From NCBI GenBank assembly GCA_050294405.1, contig JBNKOC010000012.1, positions 103,031-135,030 of the forward strand: a stretch of DNA of 32,000 nt, in the 5' to 3' direction. Position numbers and translations under genes: made by a program. Under the pieces are notes generated by a model that was not told the origin of the DNA, searched no databases, and was given only the letters and a program-made list of their open reading frames with translations. Position 1 is the stretch's first letter, and every line of letters begins with the position of its first letter. Source of the stretch: Fibrobacteria bacterium. Its GTDB lineage: Bacteria > Fibrobacterota > Fibrobacteria > UBA11236 > JADFYW01. Below, piece by piece: positions 3,660 to 21,461 of the stretch.

Positions 3660-5441
3660 ATGAGTTTCACAGAGTCTCTTTTTTGGTACAAGTGTTGCTC
3701 TTTCATAATAAATATGATAGCCATCCAAGAACGCAATAATCACAAGCTAGAAATAGTTTTGGGTCAATCCAGTTTGACTGGTCTTAGGGAGCGTAATGAA
3801 GATTTTTATGCATGTATTAAGCCGCAAAAGGTATCGACTTTAAATTACAAGGGTATTGCAGCAGTAATTGCGGATGGTGTTGGAGATACGGGTTATGGAC
3901 AAGAGGCTAGCCGTTATGCGGTGAGCACTTTTTTCTCAGAATATTTCAGTACTCCCGATTCTTGGAGCATAGAGCGATCCGGGGAAGAGGTGATAAAATC
4001 CATTAACAGTTGGTTGTACTCCCAGTCAGAACGCAACATTGGGGATAGTGGCCTTATGACGGCTTTCTCTGCAGCTATTTTATGTGGAAGCACTCTGCAT
4101 ATTTTCCATGTGGGAGACACAAGAATTTATTTAAAAGCAAAAAATAAATTAAAAAGGCTCACCAAGGATCATAGGGCTCATCACGGCCAAAATCAAATAA
4201 TTCGGGCATTGGGGTTAGATAGTAATGTTTACATCGATTATACACAGGAGATATTGGAACCAGATTCTTCTGTTATTATGATGACGGATGGCGTGCATAA
4301 TTATTTATCTGATGATAAAATCACAGGTTTTTTAAATAAGTTTGCAGCTCCTCAAGTGGCTTCAGAAGCATTAACAATGGCATCTCTTCGTGAGGGAAGT
4401 ACTGATAACATAAGCTGTCAAATAATTAACATAAAACACCTTCCTCCGTCGACAAAAAATGAAATTTATCAACGTTCCCGTGACTTGAAATTCCCCCCTC
4501 CCTTGAAAGTGGGTGCTTTTGTGGATTCTTATGAAATTCAGGAAGAACTAGGTTATGGAGCTATGGGGATAGTGTATTCCGCTTACGATTCTAAGAATGA
4601 TAAAGTGGTGGCTTTAAAGTGTCCCCGACAAGAATTTGAACAGGATATTATTTTCAGGGAAAGGCTCCTAAGGGAGGAATGGATTGGCCAGCGAGTTCAC
4701 AATCCAAATTTGATGAAAGTGCTGAATCCGAGTCATGTGCGCATGGAATACCATTATTTGGTAATGGAGTATTGTAAGGGATTTTCTCTTCGGGAACAAT
4801 TGGATAGTGGTAAGCATTTTAGTCATAATGATGTTGTTGAAATTGCTAAACAAATATGCAGAGGGTTGACAGAACTTCATCACATGGAAATTGTCCATAG
4901 GGATATTAAACCTGATAGTATTATTTGGAGTCAAGACGGTATGGTTAAGATAATCGACTATGGCATAGCCAAAGTTGGTAGTTTAAAATCTTTAACTTCA
5001 AATGCCAACGCTCCATGGATGGGAAGTCCCAATTACATGGCTCCTGAGATGTTCAAAAACAGTAGGGGGAATTCTGTCACGGATATATTCAGCCTTGGTG
5101 TCACCATGTATGAACTGTTAACAAGCTCCATGCCATATGGGGAGATAGACGCTGGAAAAGGTTATAAGAATACTGAGTTTGTTTCTTTACAAGAACTAAA
5201 CCCGGAAGTACCTAGCTGGCTTTCTACGGTGGTAGTTAAATGTTTGCACTTAGATCCTGACTCACGGTATCAAGCTGCTTCAGAAGTTCTATATGATTTG
5301 GAACATCCAGAAAAGGTTTTGCCTGATATGCGTTTTATTCCTTTATTGGAACGAAACCCTGTACTTGTTTGGAAAGTGATTTCGGCGACATTGCTTGGGA
5401 TTGTAGTTGTTTTGTCAGTGCTTTTGATTCGAGGGCGTTAA
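3660..5441 (+). CDS. Bifunctional PP2C-type Ser/Thr phosphatase / Hanks-type Ser/Thr kinase with a C-terminal membrane anchor (true start probably the ATG at 3714)
   Basis: PP2C motifs: AVIADGVGD, HVGDTRIY, MMTDGVHNY, GSTDNIS. Kinase motifs: GYGAMG P-loop, VALK lysine, HRDIKPDS catalytic loop, DYG, APE. The last ~25 residues are hydrophobic (VISATLLGIVVVLSVLLI) followed by RGR. Confidence 0.9.
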   Translation: MSFTESLFWYKCCSFIINMIAIQERNNHKLEIVLGQSSLTGLRERNEDFYACIKPQKVSTLNYKGIAAVIADGVGDTGYGQEASRYAVSTFFSEYFSTPDSWSIERSGEEVIKSINSWLYSQSERNIGDSGLMTAFSAAILCGSTLHIFHVGDTRIYLKAKNKLKRLTKDHRAHHGQNQIIRALGLDSNVYIDYTQEILEPDSSVIMMTDGVHNYLSDDKITGFLNKFAAPQVASEALTMASLREGSTDNISCQIINIKHLPPSTKNEIYQRSRDLKFPPPLKVGAFVDSYEIQEELGYGAMGIVYSAYDSKNDKVVALKCPRQEFEQDIIFRERLLREEWIGQRVHNPNLMKVLNPSHVRMEYHYLVMEYCKGFSLREQLDSGKHFSHNDVVEIAKQICRGLTELHHMEIVHRDIKPDSIIWSQDGMVKIIDYGIAKVGSLKSLTSNANAPWMGSPNYMAPEMFKNSRGNSVTDIFSLGVTMYELLTSSMPYGEIDAGKGYKNTEFVSLQELNPEVPSWLSTVVVKCLHLDPDSRYQAASEVLYDLEHPEKVLPDMRFIPLLERNPVLVWKVISATLLGIVVVLSVLLIRGR

Positions 5442-5463
5442 CAGGTTAACATAAGCCCAAAAA

Positions 5464-5871
5464 TTATTCAGCGGGGAATAAATCGTAAATAAAAACCGGA
5501 GGTTTTATGGGATGCCCTTTTGGATGTATAAAGGCATGCAGCGTTTGCCCTGTGGCAATCGTATTGCCATTTTTTTGAACCTCATAACAAAATTTAATTT
5601 TTGCTTTACCAACAAGATATCGGGTAGATTTTATTGTGATGGTATCGCCAAAAAAAGCAGGTTTTTTGTAGGTAGCTTGGGAAGCTATCACAGGAATGAG
5701 AATGTTATTTTTTTCCATCTCCTGATAGGGGTACCCTAAATCTTCAAAAATTTCGATTCGAGCCGCTTCAAAATAGGTATAGTAATTTCCATGGTGGACA
5801 AAGCCCATGGCATCCGTTTCTGCATATCTGATTTTTATATTAAAGAAATGTGGGTTATGGGGGTGTTCCAT
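5464..5871 (-). CDS. Acyl-CoA thioesterase, 4HBT/YbgC hotdog family
   Basis: 135 aa with the YAETDAMGFVHHGNY active-site region typical of YbgC/4HBT thioesterases. It overlaps the upstream MATE gene by 1 nt. Confidence 0.85.
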   Translation of the reverse strand: MEHPHNPHFFNIKIRYAETDAMGFVHHGNYYTYFEAARIEIFEDLGYPYQEMEKNNILIPVIASQATYKKPAFFGDTITIKSTRYLVGKAKIKFCYEVQKNGNTIATGQTLHAFIHPKGHPIKPPVFIYDLFPAE

Positions 5872-7250
5872 TATGCGGCATTTGGAACGCTTTTTTTAGA
5901 AGCGGTTAATATCCAGATAGTGGCTATACTACCCATTAACATGTTAGTTAGCATAGGGGCGTAGTGAAGGCCGTATTCGCCAAGCGTGGTATGCTTGGAT
6001 AAAATATAACTCAGAGCAAAATTAACGACTGCAATCCTTAATATAGTTATATACATGCTGGGAGTTCCCCTTCCCAGGCCTTGAAAGGCGCCGCCGGCAA
6101 CCATGGCCATTCCTATAAAGCCGTAGCTTAAGCTAACGCAGGATAAATAATGGATAGCAGAAACAAGGGTCTGTTTTTCCGGGTTAAATAACCCCAGTAA
6201 AGGACCTTTTAACAAAAATAAGATGACTCCAACCAATGAAGCGCAGATAAAAACGGATAATAGGCCTTTTACAATGGATTCCCGAACTCTCTCAATATTT
6301 TGCGCACCATAGTTTTGGCCCACCAAAGAAACAATGGCCGACATGATGGATAAGGAGGTAAAAACTCCAATGGTGTCTATTCTCATTCCAATTCCCAATG
6401 CGGCAATTGCAGAAGAGCCAAATGGAGTAGCCAGGGCGGTTAACAGTGTTACCCCTACACCGAACATGGATTGGCTAACGGATGCTGGCAGGGAAACTCT
6501 GATAATGCTTTTTAAATGTTGGGTGTCCGACCAGCTTGGGAGGATGGGCCATTTTAAAGCGCTTTTTCCTTTAAGGAAATACATTACGATAACTAAAGAC
6601 ATGGTGAAGTTTGCCACTACTGTTGCAATAGCTGCTCCAGGTACTCCCCAACCAAGGCCCTGTATATTCATTCCCAAAAATTTAAAACTGTCAAAAATAA
6701 AAAGTGGGTCCAGAATCAAATTTAAAATGGTTCCATAGAACATAGCCATGGATAGGGTTCGCATGTTTCCTTCGGCCCTCAATGCGCCTCCCAAAACAAG
6801 AGCTGAGGAGGTAAACATAAACCCAATCATTACAATTAGCACATAGGATTGGGTCAGGCCGGAAGTTATGGGGTCTACTTTTAATCCGGCCAAATAAAAT
6901 TTTAAAATAAATGGAATGAGTATAATTAAAACTACAAATACTCCCAAAGCAGTGAGAACGGTTTGCGCTAATGTTTGTTCCGCCTCTTTAACTTTTTTTG
7001 CCCCTAAAAGTTGGGCGAGTATGGCAGAACTTCCAGAGTTAAGTCCGTTAAAAAGGGCGAAAGGCACATAGAACATGGGAAAGCCGTAATTGAGAACGGC
7101 CATAGATGCCTGTGTACCCAATCTGGAAACGTACATGGCGTCGGCGATATTGAGCACCATATGAGCTACTAGCCCCAGAAACATGGGCAGTGCCATGCGG
7201 ACTATATGGGGGATTATATTGCCCTGGGTTAAATCTTTTTTGCTTTGCAT
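5871..7250 (-). CDS. MATE family efflux transporter
   Basis: 459 aa, about 12 hydrophobic helices, and an N-terminal ...GNIIPHIVRMALPMFLGLV... pattern typical of MATE (NorM/DinF-like) exporters. Confidence 0.85.
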   Translation of the reverse strand: MQSKKDLTQGNIIPHIVRMALPMFLGLVAHMVLNIADAMYVSRLGTQASMAVLNYGFPMFYVPFALFNGLNSGSSAILAQLLGAKKVKEAEQTLAQTVLTALGVFVVLIILIPFILKFYLAGLKVDPITSGLTQSYVLIVMIGFMFTSSALVLGGALRAEGNMRTLSMAMFYGTILNLILDPLFIFDSFKFLGMNIQGLGWGVPGAAIATVVANFTMSLVIVMYFLKGKSALKWPILPSWSDTQHLKSIIRVSLPASVSQSMFGVGVTLLTALATPFGSSAIAALGIGMRIDTIGVFTSLSIMSAIVSLVGQNYGAQNIERVRESIVKGLLSVFICASLVGVILFLLKGPLLGLFNPEKQTLVSAIHYLSCVSLSYGFIGMAMVAGGAFQGLGRGTPSMYITILRIAVVNFALSYILSKHTTLGEYGLHYAPMLTNMLMGSIATIWILTASKKSVPNAA

Positions 7251-7269
7251 TTGTCCGGCATTTTTTGGC

Positions 7270-7773
7270 CTAGGTGGGCCTTGACCCCCTGGTCATTATG
7301 ATTTTACCGGATCGAACATACTCAATAATGCCAAACTTGTCTAGCATAAGGTGAAGGGCGTCTAGCTTGTCAGAATTGCCGGTAGCTTGCAAAATCAGAT
7401 TTTCTTCTGTTAAATCCACAGTTTGACATTTAAAATGTTTTGAAATTTGCAGAATTTCCGATCTTTGATCCGCATTGCAATTGACTTTGATAAGCAACAG
7501 CTCCTTTTCAATATTTCCTTCGGAAGAATGGTGTTGGGCGTGAATAACGTCCACCAATTTGTTGAGTTGTTTGATGATTTGATCGAATGTTAAGGGATCG
7601 CCACTGGCAACCAGACTCATTCTGGAAAAATTAGGATCGTGAGCCGGAGAAACTACAGCGCTTTCAATATTAAAACCCCTGCGGGCAAAAACCAGGGCGA
7701 TGCGAATAAGAACACCTGGTCGGTTATTTACCAAAAGACTAATTGGATATTGTTCCATTTTTTGACTGTTCAT
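7270..7773 (-). CDS. ilvN: Acetolactate synthase small (regulatory) subunit
   Basis: 167 aa with the ACT-domain start ISLLVNNRPGVLIRIALVFARRGFNIES. It lies directly downstream of ilvB (1-nt gap). Confidence 0.92.
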   Translation of the reverse strand: MNSQKMEQYPISLLVNNRPGVLIRIALVFARRGFNIESAVVSPAHDPNFSRMSLVASGDPLTFDQIIKQLNKLVDVIHAQHHSSEGNIEKELLLIKVNCNADQRSEILQISKHFKCQTVDLTEENLILQATGNSDKLDALHLMLDKFGIIEYVRSGKIIMTRGSRPT

Positions 7774-7774
7774 A

Positions 7775-9490
7775 TTAAGTACTCCCTTTTGGTTTTTCCA
7801 CAGCTTCTTTGGGACGTTCCAGCATCATTTTTGAATAGGGAGCTCCCGCGGGAACCATTGGGAAAACATTATCTTCCTTCTCTACTTCTGCGTGAATCAC
7901 ACAAGGACCTTCGTTATACTCCATAGCCGCTTGCAGCACTTTTCTTACTTCAGCATTTCTTTTAATGCGAAAGCCTTTGCAGCCATAGGCTTCAGCCAGT
8001 TTTACAAAGTTGGGGTTTCCAACCATATCTACACCGGAATATCTGTTATCAAAAAAGATATCTTGCCATTGGCGAACCATGCCTAAATACCGATTGTCTA
8101 TTACCAGTATTTTAATGGGAAGTTTATGAATAACAGCCGTAGAAATTTCGCACAAAGTCATTTGAAAACCGCCGTCACCAACAATAGCTACTACCTGTTC
8201 TTCTGGCATAGCCAATTGAGCGCCGATTGCGGCAGGGAATCCAAATCCCATCGTGCCGGCACCACCGGAAGATATCCAGAAGTTTCTTTTATTTACTTTG
8301 TAAAATTGGGCCGCCCACATTTGATGCTGCCCTACATCGGTAGTCACTATGGCTCCGCCCTGGGTTACATGGTAGAGTTCATCAATTACATATTCGGATT
8401 TTAAGCCCCCCTGTTTTTTGTACTTGAGAGGGTATTGCTTTTTCCATTTTTGAACTTGCTTAACCCAGTTTTCTGTATCTCCAGGTCTTACCATGGTGTT
8501 GAGTTCTTCAACCACCAATCTGGCGTCTCCTAAAACAAAGATATCGGGTTGAATCATCTTTCCATTTTCGGATAGGTCTATGTCAACATGTATCTTTACA
8601 GCGTCTTTACAAAATTCATCCAGTTTGCCAACAATACGGTCATCCCATCTGGAACCAATGGACATTATTAAATCGCAATCCATTACAGCGTAATTGGCGT
8701 ATGCCGTTCCGTGCATACCTAACATCCCTAAGTTTAAAGGATGGGTTTCCGGAAAAGCCCCTTTTCCCAAAAGAGTATTTACCACGGGAATCTTCATTTT
8801 TTCCACTAAATTGGAAATAGCCTTGGAAGCGTTGCTGATAACAGCGCCATGCCCTAATAGCAAAATCGGTTTTTTGGCGTTGTTCAATGCTGTGGCCACA
8901 GCCTGGATGTCCTCAAACTCTCCTCTGCCAGGAATAGTGTAACCAGGAAGATTTTTTTCCACGGAAAAATCGGGTTCGAATGGAGTAGAGGAAACATCCT
9001 TGGGCAAGTCTATGAGAACGGGTCCTGGACGTCCTGTTTCGGCAAGGTAAAAAGATTCTTTAACTATTTTTGGGATTTCCGTAACATCTTTAACCAGGTA
9101 GCTGTGTTTTACAACCGGGTAAGAGATTCCGGATACATCGGCTTCCTGGAAGGCGTCCAAACCTAAATTAGCTGTTATTGTTTGCCCGCAAATGATAATC
9201 ATAGGAATTGAATCCATGTGAGCTGTCATAATTCCTGTTATGGTATTAGTGGCCCCGGGACCGGAAGTGACCAGAACAACACCTGCCTTGCCTGTGGCTC
9301 TGGCATATCCATCTGCCATATGAGTGGCTCCCTGCTCGTGGCGGGAAAGAATTAATTTGATTGGAGAATCAATTATGGCGTCAAAAATAGGAATGCTTGC
9401 GCCACCCGGGTAGCCGAAAATATATTCAACCCCATGCTGTTCTAGCCCATCTATTAGTGCTTGAGCTCCAGTTCTTGTAAGTTTACTCAT
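7775..9490 (-). CDS. ilvB: Acetolactate synthase large (catalytic) subunit, ThDP-dependent
   Basis: 571 aa with [13 protein letters not shown] near the N-terminus and the ThDP-binding IVGDGGFQM...N motif. Length and order are typical of biosynthetic AHAS. Confidence 0.95.
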
Positions 9491-9712
9491 AATTATACCA
9501 TTTATTTGGTTGGGTGTTGGTTTACTGTGGTAATTCTACTAATTTTTACCAGTTTTTCCAGTACATTTTTGAAAATAATATTAACTTTTAAAAATATTCG
9601 CTAATTTTAGAGATAGTCAATATAGTTATGAGTGAAGTATATCTATAAAACTAGATTTTTTTGCCAAATAGTCGGCGAATACTGTTTGATACTGTTAAAA
9701 AATAGGTGATAA

Positions 9713-11979: not shown

Positions 11980-14157
11980 ATGGAAATTCCAGTAGCTGTA
12001 AAAGCAGCAAAATATTTAATGCTGCTGTCTGCTTTATCTCTGCAATTTTCCTGTAAGCAAAATGGAAGTGTAAAAATGGAAAATAAATTACGAAATGAAA
12101 AAAGCCCCTATCTCCTGCAGCATGCTAAAAATCCGGTCCATTGGTATCCTTGGGGTGAGGAAGCGTTTAACAGAGCTAAAAAAGAAAATAAACTAATACT
12201 ATTGTCCATTGGTTATTCTACTTGCCACTGGTGCCATGTCATGGAAAAAGAATCTTTTGAAAAAGAGGATGTGGCAGCTATCCTTAACAAATATTATGTA
12301 AGTATTAAGGTAGATAGAGAGGAACGCCCGGATGTAGATAATTTGTATATGGGATTAGCACAAGCTTTAGGGGTTGGGGGAGGCTGGCCCCTTAATTTGT
12401 TCTTAACTCCCGACCAGGTTCCTTTTACCGGGGGCACCTATTTTCCTCCGGAAGATGCTTATGGTAAGCGAAGTTTTAAATATGTGCTTCAAACTGTGGC
12501 AAAAATGTGGGAAAGCGAACCTCAGAAAATTTTAGATACAGAAAAAGGGGTGCTAAAATATATCAATCAAAAAAATGAAGTAACCCCCACAGCTGTAAAT
12601 ATTGAAGCGTTGCATCAAAAGGCGATTTTAGAAAAAGCTTCTATGTATGAGCCGGCGTATGGGGGCTTTTCTTCAGCTCCAAAGTTCCCTATGGGTCACG
12701 CACTTTCCTATTTGATATTGCTCGAAAAAAGAAATCCAGACAAAGTGCTTCTCAATAGAATAACCCACACTTTGGATAACATGGCTTCGGCCGGGCTTTA
12801 CGATCAAATTGGAGGGGGGTTTCATCGTTATTCCACAGACAGGGAATGGCTGGTGCCCCATTTTGAAAAAATGTTATACGACCAGGCGCTTTTGATTACT
12901 GCATATGCCAATGCCTACAGCAATACCTTAAATAGCCGCTATGCAGAAATTGTAGCGGAAACAATTGAGTATCTGCGTAGAGATATGTTGGATGAAAAGG
13001 GAGGTTTTTATTCGGCTGAAGATGCCGATAGCGAGGGAGAAGAAGGGACTTTTTATTTATGGGAAATATCGGAACTCAAGGAATTAGTTCCAGAGAATAT
13101 TGGAATGTTAATGGATTGGTTTGATATAAAAGAGCATGGGAATTTCGAGGGAAAAAATATTTTAACCCGTAAACATACTATTAGATGGTTGGCGGAAAAG
13201 TATGGAAAAGATGAAGACGGGTTGAAAGCTAAAATAAAGGAAATGAATTCCAGGCTTTTGGCCGCAAGAAGCCAAAGAATCCGGCCTCATTTGGACGATA
13301 AAATTTTAACAGACTGGAACGGTTTAGTTATATCGGCGTTAAGCAAGGCAGCCCAGGCTTTGCCCGATTCGCTGGGCGATATATATAAAAAAGAAAATAG
13401 CCTTAATATGGCAAAAAATGCGGCCGAATTTGTTTTAAAAGAATTAAGAGATAAGGATAACCGGCTTTTAAAAAGTTACAGGCAAGGGCCTTCTAACATC
13501 GCAGGGTTTATTGAGGATTACGCCTTTTTTGCCAATGGACTATTGGACTTGTATGAAAGCAGTTTCGAAGTAAAATACCTTGAGGAGGCTGTGGCTACAG
13601 CCCGCCAGATGATTGAAAATTTTTGGGACTCCAAGGACGGTGGCTTTTATTTTATTCCTAAAGATGGAAGCATGCTCTTAAAAAATGCCAAGGAACTCAA
13701 TGACGGAGCTATTCCCAGCGGAAATAGTGTGGCGGCGCAGGTATGTGCTCGTCTATATCGCATTACCGCAAATGAGGAATACAAAAACATATTGGAAAAA
13801 ATGATTTCCTTTTTTGGCCCTCAAATTAATACCTATCCTTCCAGCTATCCTGTTTTTTTATCCGCATTGGATATGTATTATAATCCCGGTCCTGAAATTA
13901 TTTTATCCGGAAATAAAGAAAACGAATCCTTTAAAAAAATTTGGAGCCTGGTAAAAAAATACCCATCCATAAACCAAATATTAATTCATGTTCCTGAACA
14001 CAGTGAATCAGCCATATTTGAAATAGCTCCTTTTACCAAACAACAACGAGTCGTTGAAGGAGATGTAACCTTTTATTATTGCCAAAATAGAACATGCCAA
14101 AGACCTTTGAATTCTCCCGTAGATGTGGAAGAATTTTTAAAATCAGTTGCCGGATAA
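11980..14157 (+). CDS. Thioredoxin-domain protein of the YyaL/DUF255 (SPATA20-like) family, apparently a lipoprotein
   Basis: The ORF track starts at TTG 11962. The ATG at 11980 gives MEIPVAV...[10 protein letters not shown]. It has the conserved [12 protein letters not shown] thioredoxin-like motif, followed by a long alpha-helical (alpha/alpha-barrel-like) region. Confidence 0.85.
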
Positions 14158-14865
14158 TATTTGCAATATTGTGCTTTTGTGATTATCGAGATAATAAGAA
14201 AAATCGTGAAGGCCATCAGGGAAAATATACAGGCTGGTGTTTGGATTTTGTTTTTTCCATTCTTTAAAAACAGGTTCAATTTTTTCAATTGGAAAGAGTC
14301 TGTCGTTTCCTCCCTGAAAAAAGTGCCAATGCCCTTTTTGAAACCCATCTTGACTGTAATTTTTTTGATTTAAAATAATTTGAGGGGCGCTGGAAAATAA
14401 AAGCCTCTTGGTTATATTAAAGGGGCTGTTAATACTAAAGTGAATCACGGCTAAAGAGCCATCCGAAACACCAAATAAAATAATCGGCAATTTTTCCAAT
14501 TGCTGTTTGGCGATAAATTCCCTTAAAAAACTATTTATGTTTGTCATTAGTTGCGGGTGAAGCCAATGTAAGTTTCTATTGGCTGAGGGGCTGAATACTA
14601 TATAATCATTTCTGTTTATAAGAGGGTATATGCCTGTTAAGGCTTGTTTCCCTTTGTCTGATATGGGACTATTCATGCCGCCATGAAACCAGATGATAAT
14701 ACCTTTGGCCGAGGTCATGTTTGAAGGAAAGCTGGCGCCGTAGAAAACATTTTCAGAGCCGAATTGAAAAATGGAGTCCCGGAAGGAAAAAGAATTCTCC
14801 AGAAAGAAAAACAAATGGCAAAATAATAAAAGATGAATCTTTGTATTCATACTCATTAATTGCAA
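14143..14865 (-). CDS. Secreted alpha/beta-hydrolase (esterase-like), function unknown
   Basis: 240 aa with an N-terminal hydrophobic signal. HGG oxyanion motif (IIWFHGGMN), nucleophile elbow GVSDG, and candidate Asp (GGNDRLFP) and His (DGLHDF). It starts 21 nt downstream of motB on the same strand. Confidence 0.65.
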
Positions 14866-14886
14866 TATAGCACAATGAATAGTTGC

Positions 14887-15561
14887 TTAGTGGATTCGAA
14901 TTACAATTCTTCTGTTGGCGGCTTGGTTTTCTGGAATGGGCTTGCCGTTGGAGTCCCTGTTGGGAGCAACAGGCTTGGTATCTGCATATCCTGCAGCCTT
15001 AAGCCTGTCCCCATTCACGCCAGTTTCTATCATATACTTAACAATGTTTGTTGCCCTGGAAACGCTAAGCTCCCAGTTTGAGGGAAAACGAATGGTGTTA
15101 ATGGGAACATCATCTGTATGTCCTTCCACATCCACTACAAAGGGGTAATAATCAACCTGCTTAATGGCTTGTGAAACCTTATCAATCAGGTTTTGTGCTG
15201 TTGGGCTTATGTCGGCACTCCCGCCAGCGTAAAAAGCCGAACTTGCAAATTTTAACATTATGTTTTTTTGGTCCTGCTTTATATTAACCTGCTGGGCTGC
15301 TTTCTCATCAGCCAATAACGAGTCCAGAGCCCGCTTAATATCAGCCAAGGGAGTTTTTATCTTCTCGTCTTTGATTTCCGAAATGATTCCAGATTTCATT
15401 TGTTCCCATAAGCTCATATCCACTTTTGAAATGGATATTAACATTAAAAAAAACGCCATAAGAAGGGTTATCATATCCCCGTAGGTATTCATCCAGTCAT
15501 CTAAATTCACCTCTTCAGGTTCGTTTAGTCTGTATTTGTTTTTATGGGATTTTAAAGCCAT
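14887..15561 (-). CDS. motB: MotB/PomB-type stator subunit with an OmpA-like peptidoglycan-binding domain
   Basis: 224 aa. Single TM helix with the conserved channel Asp (YGD29MITLLMAFFLML; codon 15475-15477). C-terminal OmpA-like motif GHTDDVP...NWELSVSRA...NRRIVI. Confidence 0.9.
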   Translation of the reverse strand: MALKSHKNKYRLNEPEEVNLDDWMNTYGDMITLLMAFFLMLISISKVDMSLWEQMKSGIISEIKDEKIKTPLADIKRALDSLLADEKAAQQVNIKQDQKNIMLKFASSAFYAGGSADISPTAQNLIDKVSQAIKQVDYYPFVVDVEGHTDDVPINTIRFPSNWELSVSRATNIVKYMIETGVNGDRLKAAGYADTKPVAPNRDSNGKPIPENQAANRRIVIRIH

Positions 15562-15572
15562 GAATCGCTGCC

Positions 15573-16367
15573 TTATTTTTTGGGCTCAGCATCCATTTGA
15601 AATTTATTTTTTCTGTCCAAATAGGCGTTTAATTTATCCTGAATATAAAATGGACTTTTCTTTTCCAGTATTAACATAAACCCTTCAAGGATTAGATATT
15701 CCCGGAACCTTTGGATTCCTAAAATTTGCTTTACTTTGGTGGAGCATGGTTGGAATATAAATCTGGCGAATAAAACCCCATATAATGTGGTCATGAGGGC
15801 AATAGACAAACCAGGTCCCATTTGAGAGGGGTCATCCATTTTGCTTAACATTACAATTAATCCAATTAAGGTGCCTACCATGCCAAAAGCCGGAGCGGCA
15901 GAGGCCATTGTGTTTAATATGTTGGATTCGGATAGATGTCTGAAGTAGTGCTCTTCAATGGCGGTTTCGGTAAACTCAGCCACCTCATCTTTGGAATAGC
16001 CGGTACTGATTAAGGAACTAACATACTTCACGAAATCATCTTTTGTCTCATTTCCGATGTTTTCAAAAGCGTTGATTCCGTCTTGGGATACACGCCTGGA
16101 CCAGCTGATAACCATTCCCACATCCTGCATAAGAGATTTTGGAGTTATTTTCTGGCGTACGAAAACTTTAAATATAGATAAAAGAGCTACAAAAATATAG
16201 CGCCAGCGATACCCGATAAAAGCAGATGTTACGGTACCTCCAACAACAATGGAAGCGCTGGGACCGCTGATAAATATGCTCCAGTCATTAGTTGCGCTTA
16301 AAACACCCCAGGAAACAATTCCCACACCAAAAATAACACCGAATACGGTGGAAAGGGAAAGAAACAT
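15573..16367 (-). CDS. motA: MotA/PomA-type stator subunit (MotA/TolQ/ExbB channel family)
   Basis: 264 aa with a 2+2 TM layout and a large cytoplasmic loop. TM3 reads AAPAFGMVGTLIGLI and TM4 reads ALMTTLYGVLFARFIFQP, carrying the two conserved prolines. GGAG Shine-Dalgarno upstream; an 11-nt gap to motB. Confidence 0.9.
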   Translation of the reverse strand: MFLSLSTVFGVIFGVGIVSWGVLSATNDWSIFISGPSASIVVGGTVTSAFIGYRWRYIFVALLSIFKVFVRQKITPKSLMQDVGMVISWSRRVSQDGINAFENIGNETKDDFVKYVSSLISTGYSKDEVAEFTETAIEEHYFRHLSESNILNTMASAAPAFGMVGTLIGLIVMLSKMDDPSQMGPGLSIALMTTLYGVLFARFIFQPCSTKVKQILGIQRFREYLILEGFMLILEKKSPFYIQDKLNAYLDRKNKFQMDAEPKK

Positions 16368-17044
16368 TAATTTTGCTCCAAACTTTTGTTGGCTTTTTTA
16401 AGCTTATTCAACATTTGAATAACAGCTGGCATATCAGGGTTTAATCTAAGAGATTGCAACCAGGCTTCTTTGGCGGCGGGCATATCGTCCATCATGTATA
16501 ATATGCTTCCCATAAGGGCGTATCCATCTGACGTTTCTTGTTTTTGTAAACTGAATTTCACCATGTCCAAAGCTTCCGGAAATCTTTTCTGATAGAAAAA
16601 CTCCTGCGCCTTTCTAATTTCCGCCAAGACCTGCTGCATATCGCCTTTTGTAAGGTCATTGCCTTTGGCTATATCCATAACATCATCCCAATTTTCTTTT
16701 TTGTCTTTTTCTTCTTCCTCTTTAGCGGCAGAGTCTACGGAGGTTTTTTTGCTGGATTGCTGGACTTGAGGGGCGACAGGAGAAGGCGGGGGAACCGGGC
16801 TGCCTGACATTACCAAATTTACATCCTGGCTGTTTATGTCCACAACCATAGTTACATTTGAAGACTTGTTAGTGTATGAAATTTTCATTTCATTGCTATT
16901 TTTTGGCGCTGGAGAAGAAACCTGGTTATTCTCTGCACGGGTATCCGCGCTTTTTTTATCTGCCTTTGAGGAGGCGCAGCCCATAGCTCCCAATAGGGCT
17001 ATGTAAATCAGGCTAGAAGGTATAATTAAGGATGTCCACTTCAT
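16367..17044 (-). CDS. TPR-containing lipoprotein, function unknown
   Basis: 225 aa with lipobox LGAMG-C23. A low-complexity Ser/Pro/Gln linker (SPVPPPSPVAPQVQQ) and an acidic KEEEEKDKK stretch precede a C-terminal TPR-like pair (FFYQKRFPEALDM...AKEAWLQSLRLNPD). It overlaps both neighbouring genes. Confidence 0.7.
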   Translation of the reverse strand: MKWTSLIIPSSLIYIALLGAMGCASSKADKKSADTRAENNQVSSPAPKNSNEMKISYTNKSSNVTMVVDINSQDVNLVMSGSPVPPPSPVAPQVQQSSKKTSVDSAAKEEEEKDKKENWDDVMDIAKGNDLTKGDMQQVLAEIRKAQEFFYQKRFPEALDMVKFSLQKQETSDGYALMGSILYMMDDMPAAKEAWLQSLRLNPDMPAVIQMLNKLKKANKSLEQN

Positions 17045-18092
17045 AAGCTAGTTTCTCAAAGGTGATTTTGTGCCCCACTGCATCTCCCAAAGAACCGGTG
17101 ATAAACCGATCTCCAGCTATGTAACTTACCCCAATGGATACTCCAAAATGTTTGGAGAGTTGAGCGTTATATCCATAGGTAAAAACCGGAATGCTGCCTG
17201 TAAATAAAAAAGGAACATAATAGTAGGCGCTAAAATAGGTCCCCAACCAATGGCCCCTGTCCCGGTTTCCTTTGGGAACTAACACGGCCCAAACTCCAAC
17301 TCCAATTTGCATGGTGTATATGCCGCTGTAGCCCAATTCAATACTGTCTTTTTTGGAGATTGCCATGCGGGATACACCTGCGTTGATGTTAAACCACAAC
17401 CTTCGGTTTTTGGTCAAGGCTTCAGTGACACTCCCTTCAATGGCGACTTGGTTAAACCCGGTTTCCTTGTCTATGCCGCTTTGTCCCTCAAACTTTTCCA
17501 TGGAAAAAATTCGAATAGGTACATGAGCGGACCATTTTAAGTCGAATATGCTAGGCTCCACCTTGTTGGGTCCTGCGATAAAATCTCCAGACCACAATAT
17601 TTCAGCAGTTCGGTGCTTCACTAATTTTAGATTTAACATTACATCGCCATCCTTGGACTTGCTGCAAGAACCTTCAATAAAAGCGTCAATTCTTAATTTA
17701 TCGCCAAGCTTCCAAAGCTCTTCGATAGTAGGAATGGTGTTAGACATGCTAAAGGAGGTATCGGTGCTGATAATATTCAGGGTTTTTAGTTCGGGGGGAG
17801 ATACTAGCGTACGGCGGCCTTCATCCCGCAATGTAGTTTCAATTCGGCCTTGAATGTATCTGGACTCCCCTTTTGTGAAACCTTTGGAATCCGTTCTGAT
17901 TTGGTAAATGGCGATTTTTTCCACCGAGGGAGGTATATCCCCTAATGTTTCCTTTAGCTCAGCAATAATTTTTTCAATTTGCTTGATTCCGGAGGATGTT
18001 TCATAAAAGGGATGGTTCTCCGGTAGGTTTTCCGTTACATTGTCCCCGAAAGAAAAGGCGAATAGAAACCCCAATAATGTTAGTATTCTCAT
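17013..18092 (-). CDS. Outer-membrane protein: CsgG/FlgO/LpoB-like periplasmic domain plus a C-terminal beta-barrel-like region
   Basis: 359 aa with signal peptide MRILTLLGFLFAFSFG. The N-terminal half follows the pattern KIAIYQIRTD...IQGRIETTL...LGDKLRIDAFIEGS...VMLNLKLVKHRTAEILWSG. The C-terminal half has alternating amphipathic strands and ends in ...LNYTF, a terminal Phe OMP signature. Strong GGGAGG/GGAGG Shine-Dalgarno upstream. Confidence 0.6.
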   Translation of the reverse strand: MRILTLLGFLFAFSFGDNVTENLPENHPFYETSSGIKQIEKIIAELKETLGDIPPSVEKIAIYQIRTDSKGFTKGESRYIQGRIETTLRDEGRRTLVSPPELKTLNIISTDTSFSMSNTIPTIEELWKLGDKLRIDAFIEGSCSKSKDGDVMLNLKLVKHRTAEILWSGDFIAGPNKVEPSIFDLKWSAHVPIRIFSMEKFEGQSGIDKETGFNQVAIEGSVTEALTKNRRLWFNINAGVSRMAISKKDSIELGYSGIYTMQIGVGVWAVLVPKGNRDRGHWLGTYFSAYYYVPFLFTGSIPVFTYGYNAQLSKHFGVSIGVSYIAGDRFITGSLGDAVGHKITFEKLAYEVDILNYTF

Positions 18093-19933
18093 GCCTCCGG
18101 CCTCCCGCCATAGGCTTTGATATCCTGCCTGATTTTTTGCAAAAGGGTTTTTTGCGCGCTTTCAATTTCTTCAGCTTTTAAATCGGTTTTGGTTTCCAAA
18201 CCCGATTTTATCATAAGCTGCATCCGCTCAGGTAGTAAGGAAATTACTTTTAATTTTATGTCTTCTTCTACTCCGGCAAGGGCATTGGTAAGTACATCCT
18301 GGTTTACATTTCTAACAGAATTAGTGAGAAACTTGTCGGGAAGGCTGGTGATTTCAGGTAGGGTGATAAAATTGTTTTTGATTTTTTCCGCCAGGTTTAA
18401 ATCCACTTCTGCAATGGAATTCAGATATTCTCCCTGGACAGAAATGGGAAGGCTGTCTAAAACATCCAGTACGCTTTCAATGCCATCAGAAGCTACATAG
18501 CGCATGTTTATAACTTCAAGCGCGTTGGCAGACAATCTATCCGCTAGTTCCTTGTATACTTTAAGGGGGATGTTTTGAATTTTTCCCATTCCCGCAAGAA
18601 TTTTTGTGCGCTTGGATTTATCCAATTTTTGAAGTATGGAGCTTGCTTTGGACGGTTCCACCTGGGCTAAAGCCATGCCAATGATTCCTTCAGATTCCTC
18701 CTTTAACAGGTGGAGGATTTGTTGTTCGTTCATCTGGCGCAAAAACCCAAAGAGATCTGCATATTCGCTTTCGTTTATTATGGAGCTGGTTTGGTTTTGG
18801 TAATCTTCTTTGAATTGCTTATACACAGCTAAAACTTCTTCCCCCGCCAAGGGTTCCAATTGTTTTAACCTATTTTCGATATTTTTAGTTTCTTCTTTTC
18901 CCAGTTCTGTGGAAACAACTTTTAATATTCTTTCATCAACTGCCTTAATTAATTTTGTTGTTTCCTGATGTCCTTCTTCACCTTTTTGCTGAATCCATTT
19001 CTTTAATACCTGAGAGCTGGAGGCTGTGTCCCCAATAAAGGCGCTTAACACATAAGAACGCATTTCCCGGAGTTCGTTATTCCCACTGTCCTCTTCTTTA
19101 TTAGCCTCTGTAGATTTTTCTTTTTCGGGAGCTGTTTTAATTTCCTGGAGTTCGTTGATGATGTTAGTATAGGAATCCTGGACCTTGCTTCGCTGCCGGT
19201 TTTTAGAAAACGCTCGGGAAACAATAACGGCAATTAACAAAACAAAAATGCAAATGATGAGTAGGGGTATTAAAGAAGCCAGGTTGTCCACCAAAGGTTT
19301 GAAGGGGTTTAATTTTTCCTCTTTTTCCAACAGCTCGGAATCCGCCTTACTGCTGGGTAAGGCTTTTGGGTCCATGTTTTCAGCCAATTGATATCCCGAA
19401 TTAGGCTTTTTCTGGACTGGGAAAATTCCGGAGCGAATATCCAGCCTGTCTCCCCGATATTCATTTAAATTTGCCGACATGCTAATAAGCTTTTTAATAA
19501 AGGAGTAGTCTTTATCTTCATAGCTTGTATCCACCATGATTTCCACTTCCACATGGTTAATGGAAAAGTCACTTTGTTTTTTCCCAGCCCTGGCTTTTGC
19601 CGCCCCTTCCTTCATGTCATTGGGCAACACAGGCAGCCCCGGCAGGGTGTATATATCATCCAAATCCCCTTCCAGATCAATTTCTTCAGACTCGTTCAGA
19701 AACACATTGGCATCTACTAAAAAAGTCCGTTCATCATAATATTTGCTGAGAACATCTTTTATTAGAACTTCGTAGTAGTGGGAGGCTTTGCGAGATTGGG
19801 CTTCGTATTTGCTTCTATCCTCATTTTTAACTTTAAATTCCTGGCCATTAGCCGGGGCAAAAAGGATTATTGCAAAAAAGGCCCACTGGATGATGCCTGC
19901 AAATTTCATTGATACACTCAATTTTTGAAGCAA
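18089..19933 (-). CDS. Membrane-anchored FliF-like / FliG-like fusion protein (probable true start at ATG 19909)
   Basis: Signal peptide or TM1 MKFAGIIQWAFFAIILFAPANG. The periplasmic ~190 aa end in VEVEIMVD...FIKKLISMSANLNEYRGDRLDIRSGIF, which resembles a FliF/SctJ ring-building motif. TM helix at aa 217-239, followed by KNRQRSK. The cytoplasmic ~320 aa align by eye to FliG N, M (ILHLLKEESEGIIGMALAQVEPSKASSILQKL) and C (DKFLTNSVRNVNQDVLTNALAGVEEDIKLKVISLLPERMQLMIK...AEEIESAQKTLLQKIR) domains. Confidence 0.7.
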   Translation of the reverse strand: MLQKLSVSMKFAGIIQWAFFAIILFAPANGQEFKVKNEDRSKYEAQSRKASHYYEVLIKDVLSKYYDERTFLVDANVFLNESEEIDLEGDLDDIYTLPGLPVLPNDMKEGAAKARAGKKQSDFSINHVEVEIMVDTSYEDKDYSFIKKLISMSANLNEYRGDRLDIRSGIFPVQKKPNSGYQLAENMDPKALPSSKADSELLEKEEKLNPFKPLVDNLASLIPLLIICIFVLLIAVIVSRAFSKNRQRSKVQDSYTNIINELQEIKTAPEKEKSTEANKEEDSGNNELREMRSYVLSAFIGDTASSSQVLKKWIQQKGEEGHQETTKLIKAVDERILKVVSTELGKEETKNIENRLKQLEPLAGEEVLAVYKQFKEDYQNQTSSIINESEYADLFGFLRQMNEQQILHLLKEESEGIIGMALAQVEPSKASSILQKLDKSKRTKILAGMGKIQNIPLKVYKELADRLSANALEVINMRYVASDGIESVLDVLDSLPISVQGEYLNSIAEVDLNLAEKIKNNFITLPEITSLPDKFLTNSVRNVNQDVLTNALAGVEEDIKLKVISLLPERMQLMIKSGLETKTDLKAEEIESAQKTLLQKIRQDIKAYGGRPEA

Positions 19934-20024
19934 AATATTCTCTAACGATTTTTTTCATGGTATTACAATCCCGGTTGGGTTTGCAAAGGTTTTTTAGGAA
20001 GGGCCTTTAAAAATTCAAAAAAAA

Positions 20025-21461
20025 TTAAACGTTTAATTTCCAAAAAATTGGGGCTAGCCAGCGCAGAACCGCGAAAATGAGGAAAATTCCCAATAGATTT
20101 AACGCAAATCCAACACTTGCCATTTTTTTTATGGATACGTGTCCCGAGCTAAAAATTACAGCATTAGGAGGTGTGGCAATGGGAAGCATAAATGCGTAGG
20201 AAGCAGCCAAAGCTACGGCGCTGGTAAAAAGAATGGAATCTTGCTGATTTTGATAGCCAAGTCCGGCCATTATTGGAATGAGCATGCTTGCGGTAGCTGT
20301 ATTCGAGGTGACTTCGGTTAAAAAAATTGTAGTAAGAATAATGGCTAACAATATCAAGGAAACCGAACTTAAATTCCAGGAAGAAAATTGAGCGCCAATA
20401 TATTCAGTTAAGTTTGAAGTTGAAAATGCGTTGGCCAGGCTAAGTCCGCCTCCAAACAGGATCAAAACTCCCCAGGGCAAAGATATGGTATCTTCCCAGA
20501 CCATAAGAAACTCCTGTTTTTTTAGGGAGACAGGTAAAATAAATAACAGGCAGGCCCCGAAGATGGCTATGGTGGCATCGCTCATTAATGGAGAGATCCA
20601 ATTTTTTAAAAAGCCCTGAAAAACCCAACATAGGGCGACCAGAGTAAAAACAGCAAGCACCATTTTTTCGGGCTTACTAATGGGGCCTAATTCTTTTAGT
20701 TCCTTTAGTATTAAGGCGTTCAATTGTCCGGGTTTCAGGAAGATTTCCCTTAACTGAGTTTTCCATAAATATAGCCAGGTTAATATCAACATTATTATGG
20801 ATAAAGGCAGTCCTACTAACATCCAGCTTATAAAACTTATGTTAAAATGCAAATGCTTTTGAACATATCCTGCCCAGAAAATATTAGGAGGAGTCCCTAT
20901 CAAGGTAGCGGCCCCTCCAATGGAGGCTCCGTAAGCAATACCTAACATAAGCCCGATGCTTATTTTTGTGTTTTTATTTTCCCCCACGGTTGCCATTTTG
21001 TTGCCCACTGCAAGAGCTATGGGTAACATCATCATGGCAGTTGCTGTATTGCTGATCCACATGGATAAAAAGGCCGAGGCTCCCATGAATCCCAGTAATA
21101 GCCCGGGGCCGCTGCTACCTACCCATTTTATAGTGGTAAGGGCGATTCTTTTATGCAAATTCCATTTTTCAATACTCAAGGCAATGATGAACCCACCTAA
21201 AAAAAGAAATATTAAGTGATTGGCGTAAGGAGCGGCCGCTGACTTAGAGTCGGCAATTTTTAAAACAGGAAACAGGACTAAAGGCAATAATGATGTTATT
21301 GCCATTGGAATGGTTTCGGTAACCCAAAACACAGCCATTAAAAAGGCACAGGCGGCGGTTTTTTGGCCAGCTGCACTTAAGCCCTCTGGTTGCGGAAGTA
21401 AGAGGATTATTATAAAGCCCGATGGGCCAAGTAACCAGCCAATTTTTTGAGAAGTTTTCAA
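20025..21461 (-). CDS. DASS/SLC13-family sodium-coupled anion (di/tricarboxylate or sulfate) symporter
   Basis: 478 aa polytopic membrane protein with duplicated hairpin motifs (SNTATAMMMLPI and TSNTATASMLIPI) characteristic of DASS transporters. Confidence 0.85.
   Translation of the reverse strand: MKTSQKIGWLLGPSGFIIILLLPQPEGLSAAGQKTAACAFLMAVFWVTETIPMAITSLLPLVLFPVLKIADSKSAAAPYANHLIFLFLGGFIIALSIEKWNLHKRIALTTIKWVGSSGPGLLLGFMGASAFLSMWISNTATAMMMLPIALAVGNKMATVGENKNTKISIGLMLGIAYGASIGGAATLIGTPPNIFWAGYVQKHLHFNISFISWMLVGLPLSIIMLILTWLYLWKTQLREIFLKPGQLNALILKELKELGPISKPEKMVLAVFTLVALCWVFQGFLKNWISPLMSDATIAIFGACLLFILPVSLKKQEFLMVWEDTISLPWGVLILFGGGLSLANAFSTSNLTEYIGAQFSSWNLSSVSLILLAIILTTIFLTEVTSNTATASMLIPIMAGLGYQNQQDSILFTSAVALAASYAFMLPIATPPNAVIFSSGHVSIKKMASVGFALNLLGIFLIFAVLRWLAPIFWKLNV

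Follow-up and report, generated by a model that had tools for sequence, protein, structure and literature searches.

What are two envelope protein genes doing between a flagellar-type rotor gene and a motAB pair? The question arises from a 32,000-nucleotide stretch of DNA from a Fibrobacteria bacterium (assembly GCA_050294405.1, contig JBNKOC010000012.1, positions 103,031 to 135,030; hereafter the window), where five minus-strand genes are packed head to tail and encode, in order, a fusion of FliF-like and FliG parts, a barrel protein of 359 residues (P0001), a tetratricopeptide repeat (TPR) protein of 225 residues (P0002), MotA and MotB. A sequence-only reading of the window had placed two envelope genes between the rotor-like gene and motAB, where our analysis also finds both open reading frames (ORFs; Table 1), and had taken them for a CsgG/FlgO-like outer-membrane (OM) barrel protein and a TPR lipoprotein that together cage the stator. 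Here, on the balance of the evidence below, we consider it somewhat probable that the two genes encode dedicated OM-side subunits of a flagellum-independent machine made of these five gene products.

The genomic context establishes that both genes are fixed components of a conserved five-gene FliF/FliG–MotA/MotB cassette. All 21 loci in which the whole cassette was recovered have the order fusion, barrel, TPR, MotA, MotB between flanking genes that are unrelated, and MotB is the final conserved gene; partial loci keep this order as far as their DNA extends, none breaking it, and the fusion lies directly upstream of the barrel gene in every case. Among 296 Fibrobacterota genomes, the barrel was detected in 31, the N-terminal part of the fusion in 34 and both in 30, in genomes that span only 13–14 genera and hence are not independent. 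The lone barrel-only case comes from a contig of 2.7 kb on which the fusion is truncated, and in two of the four fusion-only cases the match lies within 200 bases of a contig start; all five belong to incomplete metagenome-assembled genomes (MAGs; 81–93% complete). The co-occurrence of both genes with the fusion and motAB, on which the sequence-only reading depended, is thus nearly absolute (30 genomes with both barrel and fusion; 21 of 21 loci). The gene junctions agree with the proposed translational coupling to motAB: the TPR stop and the motA start overlap in TAATG, the TPR start lies 32 nt within the barrel gene, and the stop of the fusion and the start of the barrel gene overlap in ATGA, with GGAGG upstream, each of the two genes thus overlapping its neighbours.

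A word-indexed protein search returned 58 homologues of the barrel protein, all of those that carry an organism name being Fibrobacterota, while an exhaustive profile search of 1.84 billion representatives returned 118 cluster representatives at 50% identity, 33 of them with E < 1e-30. The distant homologues, which align to the Fibrobacterota profile at E 6e-60 (hhalign), lie inside the same cassette on 2.8-Mb and 0.96-Mb contigs. These contigs were assigned to the Bacteroidota from one name, 'Bacteroidota bacterium', given to a related cluster, and from a gene for a protein tagged for the type IX secretion system (T9SS), which lies ~200 bp upstream of the cassette on the 2.8-Mb contig. A 2.7-kb cassette contig (L053, CAZLBO010000393.1), with 49% identity to the barrel protein, carries the record label 'uncultured Bifidobacteriales', almost certainly through a mistake in binning or taxonomy.

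Small barrels are common, as are TPR lipoproteins, and the pair might consist of a generic OmpW/OmpA-like porin and a housekeeping TPR lipoprotein that lie beside motAB, or of parts of a Zorya-like anti-phage system, as the match of MotB to ZorB models (E 2e-19) would allow. We give this explanation next to no chance, the least of any that we considered, because of the strict synteny and co-occurrence across two phyla, the overlapping genes and the lack, in the genome, of any paralogue of the two proteins. That genome has just one other flagellar-type MotAB, on contig C10, ~4 kb from fliP, at 31% (MotA) and 34% identity. Moreover, MotA matches ZorA at only 0.0037 and PomA at E 5.5e-42, neither the barrel nor the TPR protein has a PADLOC match, and no ZorC/D-like genes are present. 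A Zorya-like defence system was therefore rejected on the MotA profile and the PADLOC nulls.

The cassette is independent of the flagellum. The own genome is flagellated, with FlhA, FliP, FliF, a canonical FliG (contig C33) and eight flagellin-domain matches, and canonical FliG is present in most Fibrobacterota carriers of the cassette. Together with the flagellar ring proteins FlgO and FlgT as fold analogues of the barrel protein (see below), this would be compatible with the five genes being accessory parts of the real flagellum, that is, a second stator set with H-ring/T-ring-like proteins for the canonical motor. However, one genome of the same family, closed in a single contig of 1.6 Mb and 98% complete, carries the complete cassette in the same order, and a search of that genome for FlhA, FliP, FliF, flagellin and canonical FliG found none of them; retention of the cassette in so strongly reduced a genome suggests that it matters there. 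The cassette is also found on the Bacteroidota-assigned contigs, by the T9SS-tagged gene, and Bacteroidota are generally regarded as lacking flagella. Furthermore, no flagellar gene adjoins the cassette in any of the loci inspected, and the cassette encodes its own FliF/FliG-type rotor protein, without the FliM-binding motifs and the Asp-Asp pair of the torque helix. A second-stator role for the real flagellum was thus rejected as largely refuted by the flagellum-less carrier, and we hold it to be very improbable. The likeness to the accessory scaffolds of elaborated flagella, drawn in the sequence-only reading, is accordingly imperfect, since the cassette persists without any flagellum. The presence of rotor proteins in some filament-less genomes has been mentioned in one paper, as a passing remark.

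The barrel protein was modelled by AlphaFold2 with 56 homologues (predicted local distance difference test score, pLDDT, 81.3), and the model consists of a leader helix, an alpha/beta domain and eight long antiparallel strands (residues 186–358; pLDDT ~90), both ends of the barrel lying on one side. The leader, hydrophobic (MRILTLLGFLFAFSFG) and without Cys as read from the sequence, is consistent with a signal peptide, in agreement with the cleavable signal proposed before. A CsgG/FlgO-type lipoprotein would carry a lipobox Cys; the leader has none, and the predicted C-terminal barrel would provide the anchor instead. The Foldseek comparison that the sequence-only reading had suggested returned a TolB/LpoB-like N-terminal domain and an OmpW-like barrel. 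For the N-terminal domain, the matches in the PDB were the LpoB C-terminal domain (4q6l and 4q6z; template-modelling [TM] score 0.69, root-mean-square deviation [rmsd] 5.3 Å, E 2e-5), TolB chains by way of the TolB N-terminal domain (E 4e-7 to 2e-4), GNA1162 (4hrv; TM score 0.52) and, weakly, FlgT (3w1e; E 1e-3). The modelled domain thus appears to belong to the TolB-N/LpoB/GNA1162 fold group, as a similarity of fold for which common descent is not proven.

Profile searches gave a more restrained picture. The barrel protein has no Pfam or NCBIfam match even at E ≤ 1, its family profile returned only noise against PDB sequences (E ≥ 0.08), and the CsgG model matched neither the protein nor any of the relatives scanned. 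FlgO matches appeared below threshold in 3 of 56 relatives (best E 0.014) and in 3 of 32 (best E 0.0055), all under the 22.6-bit cut-off, next to other weak matches to LpoB, TolB_N and GNA1162-like models; a homologue of the Bacteroidota-assigned branch bears the JGI name 'TolB-like protein'. Of the CsgG/FlgO/LpoB-type N-terminal domain proposed earlier, the fold therefore finds support in the Foldseek matches, and membership of the CsgG or FlgO family, for which no significant profile match was obtained, does not. When the own genome was searched with the FlgO model, the barrel gene was not matched; the sole match reaching the Pfam cut-off (22.6 bits) fell in a 356-residue ORF on another contig (G000:C28:93375-93539), which is similar in size to the barrel protein and may encode either a true flagellar FlgO-like protein or another domain-plus-barrel protein.

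The C-terminal half was matched by Foldseek to OmpW (2f1v; TM score 0.57–0.58), the OmpA transmembrane domain (0.52) and OprG (0.44), and OMP_b-brl matches were found in 4 of 32 distant relatives (best E 1.6e-4), the barrel protein itself having none. Its C-terminus reads YTF, with Phe359 and Tyr357 at least 90% conserved, and the eight modelled strands agree with the OM barrel with a terminal Phe that had been predicted. The predicted periplasmic turns have fixed lengths (6, 8 and 4 residues) and conservation of 0.60–0.83, and include the motif KxNPDxGYW; the predicted external loops vary in length (4–21, 10–14, 2–6 and 14–19 residues), with conservation of 0.46–0.61. Since the conserved surfaces, namely the N-terminal domain and the periplasmic turns, would face the periplasm, the barrel is probably an anchor and not a surface device. 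In the model, given standard outer-membrane protein topology and a connector of only ~12 residues between the two domains, the protein is a TolB-N/LpoB/FlgO-type domain held just under the OM by an eight-stranded barrel. The block at residues 98–120 (PEL...TDxSF..SN) is its most conserved stretch (conservation 0.82; P100, E101, L102, T110, D111 and N118 invariant in the family), and the motif is retained in the most distant branch. Within this stretch, AlphaFold2 leaves residues 104–107 and 114–118 unplaced (pLDDT < 50), a pattern typical of a partner-binding segment, which makes the stretch a candidate for such a site.

The TPR protein is probably a lipoprotein, as the sequence-only reading had it: a lipobox follows the hydrophobic leader, and Cys23 is at least 90% conserved among 12 Fibrobacterota homologues. 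The proposed count of about two TPR motifs likewise proved sound. Although its Pfam TPR_1 match (E 1.2e-5) reaches 25.3 bits against a cut-off of 27.8, relatives score above their cut-offs (TPR_2, 33.6 bits in the closed 1.6-Mb genome, G242; TPR_1, 33.3 bits in locus L068), the family profile matches consensus TPR proteins in the PDB at E 1.4e-17, and the modelled helices (pLDDT ~95) superpose on CTPR2 (1na3) with a TM score of 0.87 and an rmsd of 1.0 Å. Absent from the earlier account is a beta motif of three strands (residues 52–58, 63–69 and 75–80 in the AlphaFold2 model), in which I55, N59, D69, D74, M79 and G81 are invariant. In a homologue on a Bacteroidota-assigned contig, the TPR domain and the beta motif are both retained (hhalign 98.9%, E 2e-17). 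The protein is a true TPR protein, if a minimal one, whose beta motif is specific to its family. The long spacer thought to span the periplasm is present here; it is lineage-specific, being short in the Bacteroidota-assigned homologue, and does not represent a conserved design. Across lineages, the third cassette gene encodes between 183 and 468 residues. The forms of 389–468 residues occur in related Fibrobacteria MAGs (L017:9109-10515, L054, L056-L061 and L067) and carry an extension of ~200 residues after the TPR domain, which has no Pfam match.

Covariation of evolutionary rates among nine domains of the 21 cassettes was assessed by partial Mantel tests on pairwise distances with MotA divergence controlled. 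The strongest pair was the barrel N-terminal domain with the TPR domain (partial r 0.74–0.80, p ≤ 0.001, in all four subsets). Both domains also covaried with the MotB periplasmic domain (r 0.41–0.72) and with the FliF-like periplasmic domain (r 0.43–0.58), and neither did so with the transmembrane/plug region of MotB (r −0.31 to 0.27). Towards the cytoplasmic FliG part, the barrel N-terminal domain gave r 0.61 in the Fibrobacterota-only subset and −0.01 to 0.08 in the others. The beta motif of the TPR protein covaried with the fusion domains rather than with MotB, a signal of 33 columns. A second barrel (24% identity to the cassette's own) and a 135-residue TPR lipoprotein without the beta motif were found 2.2 kb downstream of the complete cassette on a metagenomic contig (L068:7001-8489), with no second motAB or fusion, and this duplication is a further hint that the two proteins function as a unit.

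Because the barrel N-terminal domain and the TPR domain show the strongest covariation and one locus has a second copy of both genes side by side, we infer that the TPR domain may bind the periplasmic domain of the barrel protein. The two proteins would then assemble close to the OM and dock on the inner-membrane motor from its periplasmic side, at the peptidoglycan-binding domain of MotB, the FliF-like ring or both. Such an assembly could provide the motor with a fixed frame: a collar or scaffold holding the stator units and the ring in line with the wall and the OM, in the way of FlgO/FlgT/MotX/MotY or PflA/PflB in elaborated flagella. The fusion ring would be the part rotated by ion flow through MotA5B2. 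Our preference for a frame is weakly held and has three grounds: OM barrels are static, as is MotB bound to the wall; the fold analogues FlgO and FlgT belong to stationary rings; and the two proteins covary with the MotB periplasmic domain no less strongly than with the rotor.

The same two proteins could instead be the output of the machine, with force or torque from the motor transmitted by the tethered TPR/beta-motif protein to the OM-anchored TolB-N/LpoB-like domain and thereby altering the OM or the wall, by analogy with TonB and its receptors, TolA–TolB–Pal, or GldM and the T9SS. With only five genes conserved, the barrel and TPR proteins are the sole conserved candidates for a load, and the N-terminal domain of the barrel protein has the fold of TolB-N and LpoB, which relay or receive signals across the periplasm. 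The second barrel and TPR pair beside a single motor would be reminiscent of several receptors served by one energiser, and both the covariation of the two proteins with the FliF-like periplasmic domain and that of the beta motif with the fusion domains are in line with an output role. The barrel, however, has short and poorly conserved external loops and no surface domain, its connector would not let the N-terminal domain reach the inner membrane, the periplasm-bridging linker of the TPR protein is short in some lineages, and Pfam and NCBIfam scans found no effector-like domain in either protein. An output module is, in our judgement, a tentative option and less likely than OM-side subunits of a flagellum-independent motor.

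Several observations nonetheless weigh against a dedicated OM-side frame. A machine of five genes needs an output, for which it has no conserved candidates other than the barrel and TPR proteins, and MotB has a peptidoglycan-binding domain of its own, which makes a scaffold not obviously required. The partial Mantel tests are exploratory and inflated by shared ancestry and shared compartment, and provide leads only; the covariation with the FliF-like domain appears about as strong as that with MotB, and scaffold and output are hence not separated by it. The TPR homologue on the Bacteroidota-assigned contig has a linker of ~25 residues and no clear lipobox, and the tether would thus be a lipid in Fibrobacterota and a leader of unclear type there. 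The Bacteroidota assignment itself, which rests on one cluster name and the T9SS-tagged neighbour, is to be read as provisional. Finally, in the torque helix of the fusion the Arg is kept, the Asp-Asp pair is replaced and the FliM-binding motifs are gone, and rotor–stator coupling of the flagellar kind, judged from these residues, is not proven.

Table 1. Features of the five-gene cassette, in coordinates of the window (last row: coordinates of the locus named)
Feature	Position	Strand	Evidence
Fusion gene, 614 aa: FliF-like periplasmic region, transmembrane helix, FliG N/M/C	18089..19933	(-)	Pfam
P0001 gene: 359-aa secreted barrel protein	17013..18092	(-)	ORF, AlphaFold2, Foldseek, homologues
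P0001 hydrophobic leader, aa 1-16, likely signal peptidase I type, no Cys	18045..18092	(-)	sequence; model helix 2-18
P0001 predicted periplasmic alpha/beta domain, aa 34-173, TolB-N/LpoB/GNA1162/FlgO-type fold	17574..17993	(-)	Foldseek
P0001 most conserved stretch, PEL...TDxSF..SN, aa 98-120; candidate partner-binding site	17733..17801	(-)	alignment
P0001 predicted 8-stranded OM beta-barrel, aa 186-359, YTF end	17016..17537	(-)	AlphaFold2, Foldseek
P0002 gene: 225-aa lipoprotein (lipobox, beta motif, linker, two TPR repeats, capping helix)	16367..17044	(-)	
P0002 signal peptide and lipobox, aa 1-23, AMG-C23	16976..17044	(-)	alignment
P0002 three-strand beta motif, aa 52-80	16805..16891	(-)	alignment; AlphaFold2 pLDDT ~70
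P0002 disordered Pro/Ser/Gln/acidic linker, aa 86-128	16661..16789	(-)	pLDDT <50; gapped alignment
P0002 TPR domain, aa 133-224, five helices (two repeats and cap)	16373..16648	(-)	Pfam, profile, AlphaFold2
MotA/PomA-type stator A subunit, 264 aa	15573..16367	(-)	Pfam, NCBIfam
MotB-type stator B subunit, 224 aa, plug and OmpA-like domain	14887..15561	(-)	Pfam
Cassette of the closed 1.6-Mb genome (locus L050, G242:C1:930000-944000)	4491-9577	(-)	

The other three cassette proteins are recognised by existing models. The fusion matches FliG_C (7.6e-18), FliG_M (2e-9), FliG_N (4.9e-7) and, weakly, YscJ_FliF_C (0.005) in Pfam; MotA matches MotA_ExbB in Pfam (1.9e-22) and PomA (5.5e-42) and MotP (5.3e-41) in NCBIfam, all under curated cut-offs; and MotB matches MotB_plug (3.6e-15) and OmpA (4e-17) in Pfam. 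A third FliG_C-like domain (E 8e-7), which differs from both the canonical FliG of contig C33 and the fusion, is encoded by a 212-residue ORF ~22 kb before the window start (G000:C12:80689-81327, minus strand), and many Fibrobacterota genomes have two or three FliG_C matches. The own genome contains fifteen MotA/ExbB-family matches, four of them in unusually long frames of 501–546 residues that are each closely followed by a frame of ~200–220 residues; it thus holds far more ion-driven 5:2-type motors than its two Mot-type stators.

The genes on either side of the cassette were tried as operon members and rejected. Downstream, a secreted alpha/beta-hydrolase-like gene (14143-14865, minus strand) starts 21 nt past motB and stands beside the cassette in no relative, not even the closest, and is therefore unlikely to be a sixth member; upstream, a 478-residue transporter-like gene (20025-21461) is not beside the cassette even in the closest relatives either. 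Within 13900-20400, a promoter and terminator scan performed no better than on shuffled sequences, and no Rfam match or riboswitch was found.

No description of the cassette or of either protein family was found in the literature searched, and neither family has a Pfam model. The cassette looks like an undescribed envelope-spanning motor. As modelled, the fusion of a TolB-N/LpoB/FlgO-type domain ahead of an OmpW-like barrel would be a new architecture, which we have not found described, and the TPR protein represents a small, new family of TPR proteins in which the beta motif is conserved. The rotor and stator proteins of flagella are seen as parts of one organelle; here, they travel with exactly two envelope proteins, and, as these two alone in the module are not borrowed from the flagellum, they hold the key to the function of the machine and to its coupling to the OM. 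It is possible, though we consider it doubtful, that the barrel and TPR pair forms the OM end, as a coupling or output device, of a FliF/FliG–MotAB machine that carries ion-motive energy and constitutes a new motor class. If so, this class would stand beside Ton, Tol-Pal, Gld/T9SS and Agl-Glt in Fibrobacterota and Bacteroidota-group bacteria. Knowledge of the two partners also bears on how accessories of the FlgO/FlgT type, and perhaps the motor too, arose from simpler envelope machines.

Compared with known systems, the cassette is not a flagellum, Tol-Pal, Ton, Gld/T9SS, Agl-Glt or Zorya. Its neighbours of the two envelope genes are clear homologues of the flagellar core (the FliF MS-ring, FliG and MotA5B2). 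Unlike in that core, FliF and FliG are fused, the FliF part is cut to ~190 periplasmic residues, and genes for the export apparatus, rod, hook and FliM/FliN are missing from the cassette. Tol-Pal is coupled to a 5:2 MotAB-like motor, TolQR, and has a TPR protein, CpoB/YbgF, at its side. LpoB and TolB-N, which the N-terminal domain of the barrel protein matches best in structure, both belong to periplasmic adaptors attached to or acting at the OM. However, the cassette has neither the TolB beta-propeller nor TolA nor Pal, its motor partner being FliG-type and not TolA-type, and the barrel protein differs from LpoB in having neither a long linker nor a lipid anchor.

With OmpW, OmpA and OprG, the barrel protein shares eight antiparallel strands, a C-terminal aromatic residue, short fixed turns and longer variable loops, whereas its periplasmic domain is N-terminal to the barrel, the reverse of the order in OmpA. 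The TPR protein resembles PflA/PflB of Campylobacter, FlcA of Borrelia and MotX of Vibrio in being a periplasmic protein of helical repeats that is encoded alongside MotB-type stators or acts on them. It departs from them in its two repeats only, its beta motif, its tether and its lack of flagellum dependence, and profile and fold searches found no homology to PflA/PflB, FlcA or MotX beyond the generic TPR signal.

The parallel with FlgO and FlgT of the Vibrio H-ring and T-ring extends to several features at once. These proteins too are OM-associated, contain a TolB-N-like alpha/beta domain and lie around a MotAB/PomAB motor, where they help to hold the stators, and FlgO is the commonest Pfam match, though a sub-threshold one, among relatives of the barrel protein. 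Unlike FlgO and FlgT, the barrel protein has no lipobox and is anchored by its own eight-stranded barrel, an architecture not described for either of them; and, unlike the Vibrio proteins, which have FlgP, MotX and MotY as partners, it belongs to a cassette that works without these, and without rod, L and P rings or a flagellum.

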